Positions 2 through 4,018 of a stretch of 4,018 bases of DNA are shown piece after piece (position 1 is the first letter of the stretch; every line of letters begins with the position of its first letter). Origin of the DNA: a virus (taxonomy: Duplodnaviria; Heunggongvirae; Uroviricota; Caudoviricetes); the IMG/VR virus record IMGVR_UViG_2698536509_000023; one strand, given 5' to 3'. The position numbers and the translations under genes are program-made. Below the pieces are notes generated by a model. It was not told where the DNA came from, did not search any database, and saw only the letters and a list, made by a program, of their open reading frames with translations.

Positions 2-316
2 GACTGGTGGCGCAACGGTCAGAACCTGTACCTGGACAATATGGAGGCGACTGGTTTTTACAGGATTTCCCTGCCTTCCGCACAGCCTGGCGATATCCTG
101 CTGTGCTGCTTTGGCGCATCGGTGGCCAATCATGCCGCCATATACTGCGGCAACGGTGAGCTGCTTCACCATCTGCCTGAACAACTGAGTAAACGGGAGA
201 GGTATTCCGAAAAATGGCAACGACGAACGCATTCTGTCTGGCGTCACCGCCACTGGCACGCATCTGCCTTCACGGGGATTTGCAACGATTTGGCCGCCGC
301 CTCAGCCTGTATGTGA
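2..316 (+). CDS. K: Phage tail assembly protein K, C-terminal portion (NlpC/P60-type peptidase region); 5' end lies upstream of the window
   Basis: The reading frame is open from position 2 (no stop in 2..40) to a TGA stop at 314..316. The translation (...DWWRNGQNLYLDNMEATGFYRISLPSAQPGDILLCCFGASVANHAAIYCGNGELLHHLPEQLSKRERY...) matches the C-terminal part of lambda gpK as I recall it, including the His-containing motifs typical of the NlpC/P60 peptidase end. Gene order K-I-J and an out-of-frame 3' overlap with I fit the lambda arrangement. The ATG at 41 in the ORF track is internal, not the true start. Confidence 0.85.
   Translation, partial: DWWRNGQNLYLDNMEATGFYRISLPSAQPGDILLCCFGASVANHAAIYCGNGELLHHLPEQLSKRERYSEKWQRRTHSVWRHRHWHASAFTGICNDLAAASACM
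195..202 (+). promoter_or_regulatory. Shine-Dalgarno-like element upstream of the I start codon
   Basis: GGGAGAGG at 195..202, 11 nt upstream of ATG 214. The spacing is longer than optimal, which would fit translational coupling with the overlapping K gene. Confidence 0.4.
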
Positions 317-894
317 ACACGGCAGCGGAAGCCATCCGGGCGCTGTCGTTACAGGTGCCGGGATTCCGCCGTCAGATGAACGAAGGCTGGTACCAGATAC
401 GTATTCGCGGTGAGGACACGGCACCGGAGGCGGTGTACGCCCGTCTTCACGAACCTCTGGGTGAGGGGGCGGTCATCCATATTGTGCCGCGACTGGCCGG
501 AGCCGGAAAGGGCGGACTGCAGATTGTGCTGGGGGCGGCAGCCATCGTGGGGTCGTTCTTCACGGCCGGGGCATCAATGGCGTTATGGGGTTCAGCCCTG
601 GCAGCCGGTGGTTTTTCTGCCACCACGATGCTGTTTTCACTGGGGGCCAGCATGATACTGGGTGGTGTGGCACAGATGCTTGCCCCGAAGCCAAAAACAC
701 CGGAATACAGGGCAACGGATAACGGCAGACAGAACACGTACTTTTCCTCGCTGGATAACATGATTGCCCAGGGGAACCCGATGCCGGTGCCTTACGGTGA
801 AATGCTGGTTGGCTCCCGGCGAATCTCCCAGGACATCAGTACCCGTGATGAAGGCGGTGACGGGAAGATGGTGGTTATCGGGCGGCAGGCATAA
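214..894 (+). CDS. I: Phage tail assembly protein I (lambda gpI family)
   Basis: A 226-aa ORF from ATG 214 to TAA 892..894. The N-terminus (MATTNAFCLASPPLARICLHGDLQRFGRRL...) and the C-terminal motif (...TDNGRQNTYFSSLDNMIAQGN...GEMLVGSRRISQDISTRDEG...VVIGR) closely resemble lambda gpI as I recall it. A purine-rich SD-like GGGAGAGG lies at 195..202. The gene sits between K and J as in lambda. Confidence 0.9.
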   Translation: MATTNAFCLASPPLARICLHGDLQRFGRRLSLYVNTAAEAIRALSLQVPGFRRQMNEGWYQIRIRGEDTAPEAVYARLHEPLGEGAVIHIVPRLAGAGKGGLQIVLGAAAIVGSFFTAGASMALWGSALAAGGFSATTMLFSLGASMILGGVAQMLAPKPKTPEYRATDNGRQNTYFSSLDNMIAQGNPMPVPYGEMLVGSRRISQDISTRDEGGDGKMVVIGRQA

Positions 895-936
895 AAGCGA
901 AAAAATCCCGCAGTGCTCACGGACAGGAACTGCGGG
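895..936 (-). terminator. Candidate rho-independent terminator reading on the minus strand
   Basis: A perfect 8-bp GC-rich inverted repeat, CCCGCAGT (907..914) pairing with ACTGCGGG (929..936), with a 14-nt loop. On the minus strand the hairpin is followed directly by ATTTTTTCGCTTTT (complement of 895..906). On the plus strand no T-run follows, so polarity is minus. Confidence 0.45.
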
Positions 937-1002
937 AGCGTTACGAAGATTGAGTGTAAGGAATTATTCTTATGTCACGACAAAAAACATTAACGCAGAG
1001 AA

Positions 1003-1030
1003 ATTATTAGCGCCACAGTCAGTTTGTGAA
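1003..1030 (-). promoter_or_regulatory. Putative sigma70-like promoter on the minus strand, firing leftward toward the 895..936 terminator
   Basis: Read on the minus strand: TTCACA (complement of 1025..1030; 5 of 6 matches to TTGACA), a 16-nt spacer, then AATAAT (complement of 1003..1008; 5 of 6 matches to TATAAT). The match is found by eye in AT-rich DNA, where chance promoter-like hexamers are common. Confidence 0.2.
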
Positions 1031-1067
1031 AATGTGAAGATATTCAGAATTTTTATTCAGTCATGAT

Positions 1068-1098
1068 ACAGGCATCCTCCGGGATGCCTGTTGTTTTT
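1068..1098 (+). terminator. Candidate rho-independent terminator / attenuator-like hairpin on the plus strand, just upstream of J
   Basis: A perfect 10-bp inverted repeat, ACAGGCATCC (1068..1077) pairing with GGATGCCTGT (1082..1091), with a 4-nt loop TCCG, followed by TGTTTTT (1092..1098). It lies 35 nt upstream of the J start codon. Confidence 0.5.
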
Positions 1099-1120
1099 GT
1101 GCGTAACAGTTATCACAGTA

Positions 1121-1129
1121 AAGGGTGAG
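1121..1129 (+). promoter_or_regulatory. Shine-Dalgarno-like element for J
   Basis: AAGGGTGAG at 1121..1129, ending about 4 nt before ATG 1133. Confidence 0.5.
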
Positions 1130-1132
1130 ACA

Positions 1133-4018
1133 ATGGGCAAAGGTGGCGGCAAGGCGCACACGCCGGTAGAGGCAAAGGACAATCTTAAGTCCACGCAGAT
1201 GATGAGCGTGATTGATGCCATTGGTGAAGGGCCGATTGAAGGCCCGGTGAAGGGGCTGCAGAGTATCCTGGTGAACAAAACCCCGCTGACGGACACGGAC
1301 GGCAATCCTGTGATACACGGTGTGACCGCGGTCTGGCGCGCCGGGGAGCAGGAGCAGACACCACCGGAAGGCTTTGAGTCCTCCGGAGCGGAAACCGGAC
1401 TGGGCGTGGAAGTGACGAAGGCAAAGCCGGTAACGCGCACCATTACATCCGCGAACATTGACCGCCTGCGGGTCACCTTCGGGGTGCAGTCACTGTTGGA
1501 GACCACCTCAAAGGGCGACCGTAATCCCTCTTCTGTCCGACTGCTGATTCAGTTGCAGCGTAACGGTAACTGGGTGACGGAAAAGGATGTCACCATTAAC
1601 GGCAAGACCACCTCGCAGTTTCTGGCGTCGGTGATTCTGGATAATCTGCCTCCCCGCCCCTTTAACATCCGGATGGTCAGGGAGACGGCGGACAGCACCT
1701 CGGACCAGCTGCAGAACAGAACGCTGTGGTCGTCATACACCGAAATCATCGATGTGAAACAGTGCTACCCGAACACGGCGATTGTGGGGCTGCAGGTGGA
1801 TGCGGAGCAGTTCGGCGGTCAGCAGATGACGGTGAACTACCATATCCGCGGTCGCATCATCCAGGTGCCGTCAAACTACGACCCGGAAAAACGCACTTAC
1901 AGCGGTATCTGGGACGGCAGCCTGAAACCGGCATACAGCAACAACCCGGCCTGGTGCCTGTGGGACATGCTGACTCACCCGCGCTACGGCATGGGAAAAC
2001 GTCTGGGGGCGGCAGACGTGGACAAATGGGCGCTGTATGCCATTGCGCAGTACTGCGACCAGACGGTCCCGGATGGCTTCGGGGGCACAGAGCCGCGGAT
2101 GACCTTTAATGCATACCTGTCACAACAGCGTAAGGCGTGGGACGTTCTCAGTGATTTCTGCTCGGCGATGCGCTGTATGCCGGTATGGAACGGCCAGACG
2201 CTGACGTTCGTTCAGGACCGCCCGTCGGATGTGGTGTGGCCGTACACCAACAGCGATGTGGTGGTGGATGATAACGGCGTGGGGTTCCGCTACAGCTTCA
2301 GTGCCCTGAAGGACCGGCACACGGCGGTGGAGGTGAATTACACCGACCCGCAGAACGGCTGGCAGACCTCCACGGAACTGGTGGAAGACCCGGAAGCCAT
2401 ACTGCGCTACGGGCGCAACCTGCTGAAGATGGATGCGTTCGGTTGCACCAGTCGCGGTCAGGCCCACCGTGCCGGGCTGTGGGTGATAAAGACCGGACTG
2501 CTGGAAACGCAGACGGTGGATTTCACGCTCGGGTCACAGGGGCTGCGTCACACACCCGGAGACATTATTGAAATCTGTGATAACGACTATGCCGGGACCA
2601 TGACCGGCGGACGTATCCTGTCCATCGATGCCGCCAGCCGCACCCTGACACTGGACCGTGAGGTGACCCTGCCGGAGACAGGTGCCGCCACGGTGAACCT
2701 GATTAACGGCAGCGGTAAGCCGGTGAGCGTGGCCATCACTGCACACCCCGCGCCGGACCGGATACAGGTCAGCACCCTGCCTGATGGTGTGGAGACATAC
2801 GGTGTATGGGGACTCTCCCTGCCGTCACTGCGTCGTCGCCTGTTCCGCTGTGTCTCCATCCGGGAAAACACGGACGGCACCTTTGCCATCACGGCGGTGC
2901 AGCACGTACCGGAAAAGGAAGCCATCGTGGATAACGGGGCCAGCTTTGAGCCGCAGTCAGGCACCCTGAACAGCGTTATTCCACCGGCAGTGCAGCACCT
3001 CACGGTGGAGGTGAGCGCGGCTGACGGCCAGTATCTGGCACAGGCGAAATGGGACACGCCGCGGGTGGTGAAGGGGGTGCGCTTCAGTCTGCGACTGACC
3101 AGCGGAAGCGGAGAAGACAGCCGTCTGGTGACCACCGCCATCACTGCGGATACAGAGCATCGTTCCAGTGGTCTGCCGCTCGGGGAATACACCCTGACAG
3201 TCAGGGCAATTAACAGTTATGGCCAGCAGGGCGAACCGGCCACCACCACCTTCCGGATTAACGCGCCAGCAAAACCCGCCACCATTGAACTGACGCCGGG
3301 GTATTTTCAGATAACGGCGGTCCCGCGTCTTGCGGTGTATGACCCGACGGTACAGTTTGAGTTCTGGTTTTCGGAGACAAAAATCGCAGACACATCTCAG
3401 GTGGAAACCTCTGCCCGTTATCTGGGGACCGGCAGTCAGTGGAGTGTATCCGGCCCGCACATTAAGCCCGGGAAGGATTTCTGGTTTTACGTGCGCAGCG
3501 TCAATCTGGTGGGCAAGTCTGCGTTTGTGGAAGCCAGCGGGCAGGCCAGCAATGATGCAGAAGGGTATCTGGACTTTTTCAGAGGAGAAATAGGAAAAAC
3601 GCATCTGGCTCAGGGGTTGTGGGAACTGATAGATAACAGCCAGCTTGCAGATGAGATGGCGGAGATGAAGACCAGCATCACGGAAACCCGCAATGAAATC
3701 ACACAGACGGTCAACAAAACGCTGGAGGACCAGAGCGCCACCATACAGCAGATACAGCGCGTGCAGAAGGACACAAATGATGACCTGGCTGCGCTGTACA
3801 TGCTGAAGGTTCAAAAAACGAAAGACGGCATTCCCTATGTGGCCGGGATTGGTGCAGGGATTGAGGATACTGATGGCCAGCCACTGAGCAACATACTGCT
3901 GCTGGCTGACCGTATCGCGATGATAAATCCGGAGAACGGCAACAGCACGCCGTTATTTGTGGCGCAGGGGAATCAGCTGTTCATGAACGACGTGTTCCTG
4001 AAGCGGCTGTTTGCGGTG
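1133..4018 (+). CDS. J: Tail tip host specificity protein J (central tail fibre), N-terminal about 962 codons; continues past the window end
   Basis: The frame is open from ATG 1133 to the window end (2886 nt, exactly 962 codons, no stop). The translation begins [42 protein letters not shown]... and contains blocks highly similar to lambda gpJ as I recall it ([115 protein letters not shown]). An SD-like GGGTGAG sits just upstream. Confidence 0.95.

Follow-up and report, generated by a model that had tools for sequence, protein, structure and literature searches.

Organization of the I-J spacer

We analyzed a 4,018-nucleotide stretch of DNA (the window) from a virus of the class Caudoviricetes (IMG/VR record IMGVR_UViG_2698536509_000023), and focused on the 238-bp spacer at 895..1132 between the tail genes I and J, where the minus strand holds a predicted small RNA (sRNA) gene of the PasB/EcOnc22 family. 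I stops at 894 and J starts at 1133; these positions, given by an earlier reading made without database searches (the sequence-only reading), are right, and so is its figure of about 60 bp for the gap in phage lambda (60 bp between the I end at 15444 and the J start at 15505). The segment 941..1067, which the same reading had put at roughly one-third G+C, has a computed G+C content of 31.5%, against 41.2% for the whole spacer, 60.5% for I and 58.8% for the J part, and sliding 100-nt windows reach a minimum of 0.33.

The inserted transcription unit occupies 895 to about 1049 on the minus strand (~155 bp), and consists of a terminator, an sRNA body, a promoter and an upstream palindrome. The unit is absent from lambda and lambda-type prophages, which have 60-bp spacers, and from prophages of Enterobacter, Rahnella and Pantoea, where spacers of 42-54 bp were found; with Shigella prophages included, the range is 42-60 bp. 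In recombinant loci the right breakpoint falls directly after ...TTCAGAATTTTTAT, and lambda retains AAATGTTTTAT at the point corresponding to the edge of the insert. The flanking genes are thus adjacent in related phages, the extra unit has its own predicted promoter and terminator, and its base composition is deviant (31.5-41% G+C against about 60%). These observations bear out the earlier suggestion of a horizontally acquired, moron-like insertion: the spacer carries a moron between I and a conserved hairpin before J, and its cargo is an allele of a known sRNA family. It resembles the classical lambdoid morons (Juhala et al., 2000), of which the prophage sodC seen at the I-J junction (see below) is an example, in being an extra unit between genes that are neighbors in relatives, with its own promoter and terminator and a deviant base composition, but its cargo is an RNA rather than a protein and is transcribed against the late operon.

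The sRNA gene spans 899..995 on the minus strand, and the predicted RNA is about 82-97 nt long with its 3' end in the U-run at 905..900. The intrinsic terminator (900..937, minus strand) adjoins the I stop codon and has a 9-bp stem (937..929 paired with 914..906), a 14-nt loop and a U6 tail at 905..900; our consensus scan places it at about 923..907, with a T-run. Upstream of the terminator in the RNA lies a single-stranded central region, AAUUCCUUACACUCAAUCUUCGUAACGCU (938..962), in which conserved UCC and AAUCUUC blocks flank an allele-specific core that we presume to be the seed. This is preceded by an (ARN)3 tract, AAGAAUAAU (963..971), a candidate site for the distal face of Hfq. Roles for ARN tracts and U-tailed terminators as the respective determinants of distal- and proximal-face binding have been discussed for the sRNA AgvB. 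A sigma-70-type promoter was found by the consensus scan at 1003..1030 on the minus strand, with a -35 hexamer TTCACA (1030..1025), a 16-bp spacer and a -10 hexamer AATAAT (1008..1003), so that the unit is predicted to have its own sigma-70 promoter and Rho-independent terminator and to produce an RNA of about 80-100 nt. The palindrome TGTGA-N6-TCAGA (1033..1048), 24 nt upstream of the -10 hexamer, is CRP-like; its sequence AAATGTGAAGATATTCAGAATT agrees with nine of the ten core bases of a TGTGA-N6-TCACA-like CRP site, and this single match in the window compares with 0.02 expected by chance. In total the scan returned four terminator-like sites against 0.6 expected and two promoter-like sites against 0.6 expected, among them both of the terminator-like hairpins of opposite polarity and the promoter-like hexamers that the sequence-only reading had pointed out.

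That reading had assigned both hairpins to the extra segment. The minus-strand terminator does belong to the insert, whereas the plus-strand hairpin with its T-run (1068..1101; 10-bp stem, loop TCCG) lies outside it. The scan places a terminator on the plus strand at 1068..1091, with TGTTTTTGTG after it; the hairpin has a fold z of -3.5 and shows one compensatory change, T:A to C:G, between alleles. In the 60-bp spacer of lambda, a GC hairpin on the plus strand with a T-run behind it (locus L127, 764..790) directly precedes J, and prophages of Enterobacter, Rahnella, Pantoea and Shigella have a hairpin at the same place, each with a different sequence. Because lambda and other lambdoid prophages have these equivalents, we assign the hairpin at 1068..1091 to the I-J backbone; it has the appearance of a conserved tail-operon element that terminates or attenuates transcription or stabilizes the mRNA. 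The consensus scan found no plus-strand promoter able to use this terminator. An open reading frame (ORF) without a Shine-Dalgarno sequence runs through the hairpin, with 21 codons in the window (1063..1128) and 16 in lambda (L127, ~753..803), and stops a few nucleotides before the J start codon, within the J ribosome-binding site; translational coupling or melting of the hairpin through this ORF is possible.

The 3' part of the tail gene K lies at 2..316 on the plus strand and encodes an NlpC/P60 peptidase (Pfam NLPC_P60, E = 1.1e-8; stop TGA at 314-316). Tail assembly gene I (313..894, plus strand; stop TAA at 892-894) encodes 193 residues (Pfam Lambda_tail_I, E = 2.3e-8). Its start is likely GTG 313, which overlaps the K stop; the listed ORF 214..894 shares the frame of I, and the 4-nt K/I overlap and the length of I are the same in the annotated I genes of E. 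coli strains E2348/69 and Sakai. J, the tip attachment or host specificity gene, starts at ATG 1133 and leaves the window at 4018 on the plus strand after 962 codons, which cover five Pfam domains (FNIII-A_GpJ, Phage-tail_3, Ig_J, Ig_J_second and Phage_Tail_Tip). In the Sakai prophages Sp15 (locus L002, 1..1191) and Sp14, J is annotated as two overlapping coding sequences (ECs_2943/2944, and ECs_2720 of 1176 bp), which suggests that J is frameshifted in those prophages.

Relationship to PasB and EcOnc22-24

PasB is one of five "pathogenicity-associated" sRNAs detected in enteropathogenic E. coli (EPEC) E2348/69 by ligating and sequencing interacting RNAs (RIL-seq) on Hfq and verified by northern blotting (Pearl Mizrahi et al., 2021; PMC8550237). 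It is an 83-nt RNA of prophage PP6, encoded on the minus strand of NC_011601.1 from 1466343 to 1466261. In this record the end of tail assembly protein I is at 1466255 and the start of gpJ at 1466496, which puts PasB in the I-J spacer and in antisense orientation to the tail operon. EcOnc22, EcOnc23 and EcOnc24 are three homologous peaks obtained by analyzing cDNA after UV cross-linking to Hfq (CRAC) in enterohaemorrhagic E. coli (EHEC) O157:H7 Sakai, located in the Shiga toxin 1 (Stx1) phage Sp15, in Sp14 and in Sp11, respectively (Tree et al., 2014; PMC4104026). Mapping EcOnc22 by coordinates alone is ambiguous, as the paper used an older Sakai record for which AgvB1 suggested an offset of about +140. 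The EcOnc22/23/24 read from RNase E cross-linking, ligation and sequencing of hybrids (CLASH), GCCTGAAAAATAACTCCATAACGTTAATCTTCA (Waters et al., 2017, supplement; PMC5286369), has an exact and single match in the Sp15 spacer at NC_002695.2 2902852-2902884, which fixed the offset at +135. The three Hfq peaks map to the 240-bp I-J spacers of Sp15, Sp14 and Sp11, on the strand opposite to the tail genes. The predicted RNA of the window has this same location and orientation.

The spacers of the window and of E2348/69 align from end to end, with about 93% identity in the promoter and hairpin part and about 65% in the sRNA body; the sRNA allele of the window is 65% identical to PasB and 59% identical to EcOnc22. 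Two motif scans of IMG/VR for I-J spacer units gave 65 distinct sRNA sequences, and a covariance model was made from 24 of these, each at most 68% identical to the window allele, with PasB and EcOnc22 included and the window and its close relatives left out. This model matches the window at 995..899 on the minus strand over its full length (61.5 bits, E = 5.4e-12), and this is its sole significant match in the window. By sequence relationship and location, the predicted RNA is a divergent allele of the PasB/EcOnc22-24 family. The sequence-only reading had judged a non-coding function likelier than a protein, a judgment that agrees with the finding that homologous units at the same locus yield Hfq-bound sRNAs validated by northern blotting. 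It had also proposed database searches with the spacer; by megablast the spacer has matches in 1729 of 5426 complete E. coli genomes (about a third, at up to 8 places per genome), whereas the scan of 895..1132 against Rfam 15 at E up to 10 gave no match to any family, including AgvB (RF02702), AsxR (RF02703), Esr41, STnc100 and IsrG.

The family has a common order of modules. In the RNA sense it begins with GCGUUA..UUUUUU, a segment that varies, the A-rich (ARN)n tract and AAYUCCUU. Next come a core of 4-6 nt that is variable, UUAAUCUUC and a linker that also varies, and the order closes with the terminator stem CCCGCAG-loop-CUGCGGG and a tail of 6-8 U. At the position of the ARN tract, at least three ARN triplets are present in 58 of the 65 alleles, compared to 3.9% of composition-matched shuffles; the sequence of the tract differs between allele groups though its position is kept. 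RNAalifold on the family alignment predicts the terminator hairpin alone and leaves the rest open. The stem CCCGCAG/CUGCGGG is unchanged in 35 alleles, partly because it served as a search anchor. Some alleles with AAAAACGCTCCCGC... have the stem CUCCCG/CGGGAG in its place and keep the promoter block; here the terminator is replaced rather than merely mutated. At the 5' end of the unit the -10 hexamer is a perfect TATAAT in most alleles, and both pentamers of the palindrome and its 24-nt spacing to the -10 hexamer are fixed between alleles, while the N6 varies and the 24 nt between them, -35 region included, differ strongly between allele groups. Part of the sample behind this spacing had been selected by the motif itself; in the terminator-anchored and J-anchored samples, no locus whose promoter is intact lacks the palindrome.

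The window allele and PasB share the locus, the strand, the promoter region, the terminator stem with its U-tail and the conserved blocks. They differ in the central core, which is CCUUACACUC in the window and CCUUCACAUUG in PasB, in the terminator loop, which is 5 nt longer in the window, and in the -10 hexamer (AATAAT against TATAAT). A 2026 survey describes only few-nucleotide variants of PasB (Zhu, Shabalina and Storz, 2026; bioRxiv 10.64898/2026.05.13.724894), and the window allele therefore probably lies outside its BLAST criteria. EcOnc22/23/24 share the locus and orientation and differ from the window in the -35 region and in the central core (CCAUAACGUU). Neither of the two Pas papers (2021, 2026) makes a link between PasB and EcOnc22-24, and a 2021 review lists the targets of EcOnc22 as unknown. 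The family has been published already, and nothing here is categorically new; the identity of PasB and EcOnc22-24 as one family, its allelic breadth concentrated in the seed and its conserved palindrome appear not to have been stated before.

AgvB and AsxR, and HnrS (EcOnc10-12), are comparable as short Hfq-binding sRNAs that are non-coding morons of lambdoid prophages, with ARN motifs and with variable 5' parts on a conserved 3' end. However, they sit at the PR' moron site or in the late-gene region and have no sequence or Rfam match to the window, and they have defined mechanisms, namely sponging of GcvB or FnrS and repression of hha, in contrast to the I-J family. An identity with AgvB or AsxR was rejected, as both sit at the PR' moron site and differ in sequence, and one with HnrS was rejected as it lies at another locus.

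These sRNAs are also the precedent for reading the window RNA as a sponge that titrates a core-genome sRNA, as AgvB does GcvB and AsxR does FnrS. EHEC prophage sRNAs with ARN motifs and variable 5' regions act in this way, the ARN tract of the I-J family is conserved, and one PasB chimera joins it to intergenic RNA flanking pasA. We nevertheless regard a sponge as quite improbable: AgvB and AsxR are unrelated to the window RNA by sequence or Rfam and occupy a different moron site, the PasB partners are nearly all coding sequences, and no mimic of a known sRNA target was recognized.

Distribution and exchange at the junction

The exact spacer of the window, at 100% identity, is present in at least 30 records of Stx1a- and Stx2c-converting phages and also in many E. 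coli genomes, O26 and O157 among them; the best match to the whole window is 97.6% identical, in the Stx1a phages LC744181-4. We collected 79 loci with a single anchor, a J N-terminus that shares at least 97% identity with that of the window. A complete sRNA unit is present in 62 of these, with 17 different bodies, and 13 of the 62 have a further insert of about 100 bp on the right. This shows that the sRNA alleles reassort freely relative to J. In 14 of the 79 loci, the junction instead holds sodC, a minus-strand gene for a Cu,Zn superoxide dismutase (Pfam Sod_Cu, E = 3.9e-32). The sodC loci, such as L227 (1..900), L230, L233 and L235, have sodC between the sRNA body and J with the breakpoint at the equivalent of about 994/995 in the window, such that the sRNA promoter is replaced and a window-type body is left without a promoter downstream of sodC. 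The I-J junction is a general moron hotspot, and the presence of sodC supports the moron reading of the spacer.

Other arrangements were seen at the junction. Five loci (L244, L251, L254, L275 and L128) have spacers of 336-337 bp with about 100 bp extra to the right of the sRNA unit; here the usual hairpin is replaced by a CCCCGGTATC..GATACCGGGG hairpin with A/T runs on both sides, and this segment may be a second small transcription unit. Three loci carry two sRNA units of different alleles in tandem, about 225-670 nt apart, and a duplicated stretch from the 3' end of gene I lies between them. A contig search with the I protein gave 21 loci, several of them from evidently contaminated assemblies, a set usable for spacer comparison rather than for taxonomic distribution. 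Proteins 91-98% identical to I of the window were found on contigs assigned to Streptomyces flavalbus (L128), Parendozoicomonas haliclonae (L132) and a Clostridiales metagenome-assembled genome (L140); the I genes in these short non-enterobacterial contigs most likely represent E. coli prophage contamination.

The promoter-less copies of the exact window allele beside sodC imply that the body can persist without its promoter. Together with the -10 hexamer and U-tail of the window, which are slightly weaker than the family consensus, they could be taken to mean that this phage makes no functional RNA from the spacer, which would be transcription punctuation or an insulator composed of two terminators, or else the decaying scar of a recombination event. 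The number of records in which the complete unit is identical argues against this, as do the intact promoter, palindrome, ARN tract, seed blocks and terminator, the full-length match to the covariance model and the abundant expression of the homologues, and we judge this explanation very improbable.

Comparison of the alleles also bears on the coding capacity of the spacer. The sequence-only reading had found no credible ORF: the 21-codon ORF at 1063..1128 and the 12-codon ORF at 972..1010 that it listed are both present, and the latter is not conserved across alleles. A small protein could still be proposed, as the ATG at 972 has AAGGAA 8 nt upstream and the antisense sRNA covers this ORF, an arrangement reminiscent of a type I toxin under an antisense RNA; the ORF at 1063..1128, which lacks a Shine-Dalgarno sequence, would be the other candidate. 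However, a third of the alleles have no start, the frame shifts with the length of the A-run, the products of 6-57 residues share no sequence between alleles, and the 972..1010 peptide is hydrophilic, unlike type I toxins. As neither start, frame nor length of the overlapped ORF is conserved, we rejected a peptide or type I toxin-antitoxin module, and a protein product of either ORF is scarcely credible.

Homologue expression and the proposed role of the window RNA

The homologues of the window RNA are expressed in lysogens, stabilized by Hfq and found in chimeras with mRNAs on Hfq and RNase E. PasB falls in the hfq deletion (log2 fold changes of -6.8 and -2.4), and EcOnc22 is about 85 nt long on northern blots and is destabilized in an hfq deletion (PMC4104026). 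Within Hfq chimeras PasB nearly always takes the second position, and its partners under virulence-activating conditions are bfpB, bfpI, ftsZ, galE, ler, perB and rplX. The PasB-ftsZ chimeras fall at the ftsA-ftsZ junction and the start of ftsZ, with an odds ratio of 43.6, and cover the ftsZ translation-initiation region, a known target of the prophage sRNA DicF; a convincing duplex between PasB and ftsZ was not found among our predictions. In a CLASH hybrid of EcOnc22/23 with yjbJ, the mRNA segment AACGUUAUGG, within the coding sequence, forms ten perfect pairs with CCAUAACGUU in the allele-variable core of the sRNA. For the central region of PasB, the predicted pairing energy is -23.7 kcal/mol with the chimera fragment of ler and -23.6 kcal/mol with that of galE (p of about 0.04 against shuffles), and in this restricted test the marginal signals were limited to PasB-ler, PasB-galE and the Sakai sRNA with galE. 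Whole-length duplexfold and simple local complementarity of the sRNAs with the RIL-seq partners of PasB gave nothing above shuffles.

We consider it likely that the ~155-bp moron encodes a minus-strand, Hfq-dependent sRNA of about 82-97 nt, a divergent allele of PasB/EcOnc22-24. A sigma-70 promoter of its own would drive transcription of the RNA in the lysogen, with no dependence on Q-antiterminated late transcription, and the RNA would bind Hfq through the U-tailed terminator and the (ARN)n tract. With its single-stranded region at 938..962 it would base-pair in trans with mRNAs of the host or of islands. Target sets are probably allele-specific, since the central core differs between alleles. 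A dimeric regulator at the conserved palindrome, which resembles a site for a dimeric activator, probably governs transcription, and CRP-cAMP is our best guess for its identity. PasB is more abundant in overnight static lysogeny broth (LB) than in Dulbecco's modified Eagle medium (DMEM), opposite to the CRP-repressed sRNA Spf, a pattern in the homologue that is consistent with CRP-cAMP control, though not specific to it.

Several observations weigh against this interpretation. Expression and Hfq dependence are seen in the homologues, with the window allele contributing a predicted ARN tract and U-tail, and this allele has AATAAT and 6 U where TATAAT and 7-8 U are usual in the family. The 5' end is ambiguous: the -10 hexamer predicts a start at about 996/995, and the 5' ends of the homologues, from PasB coverage and from three Sakai CLASH reads, follow the U-run some 14-15 nt further in, which corresponds to about 981 in the window. 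The palindrome is accordingly centered at -44.5 for a start at 996 or at -59.5 for a start at 981, and as canonical CRP sites lie at -41.5 and -61.5, assignment to CRP class I or class II is hypothetical for both candidate starts. RNAalifold on the alleles found no covariation or compensatory pairs for any structure, the CLASH hybrids consist of one or two reads each, and the window allele has no significant predicted pairing with the PasB partners ler, galE and ftsZ.

The position of the sRNA also invites a reading in cis. It is contained entirely in the I-J spacer, antisense to a polycistronic late operon, with perfect complementarity to the late I-J mRNA of its own phage, and pairing could provoke RNase III or RNase E cleavage, reducing the expression of J (or I) from a phage with the same allele during induction or superinfection. 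The hypervariability of the body, with 17 versions upstream of J N-termini at least 97% identical, would fit allele-specific recognition. However, the homologues were detected on Hfq and RNase E as trans partners of mRNAs from the host and from islands, and the complementarity stops about 140 nt upstream of the J ribosome-binding site, such that no direct block of translation is expected. We therefore hold a cis-antisense regulator to be unlikely, and note that it would be compatible with action in trans.

As each allele is perfectly antisense to its own late I-J transcript, the allelic diversity could also reflect interference between phages. The I-J sRNA would then be a seed-swapping cassette, in which a conserved promoter/operator and an Hfq-binding terminator frame a central segment freely exchanged between prophages by recombination (at least 65 alleles, 17 of them ahead of near-identical J genes), and the tail-tip mRNA of co-resident or superinfecting rivals with the same allele would be cleaved. 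That the diversity reflects such allele-specific interference between lambdoid phages, and not only reprogramming of the host, is a speculative proposal that we think rather improbable.

Taken together, our data join PasB and EcOnc22-24, which were named separately, as one family whose breadth exceeds the few-nucleotide variants reported so far, and put a name to a gap that lacks annotation and occurs in about one-third of complete E. coli genomes. With the trans-acting, Hfq-dependent sRNA as the likely product of the window unit, the spacer provides a defined construct for testing how phage morons wire into Hfq networks. The implication of an allele-specific seed is that EHEC and EPEC receive, by way of one slot, differing regulatory specificities from Stx and other lambdoid prophages. 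The partners of PasB include ler, perB, bfp and ftsZ, and the window allele, if active, could affect virulence or the control of cell division.

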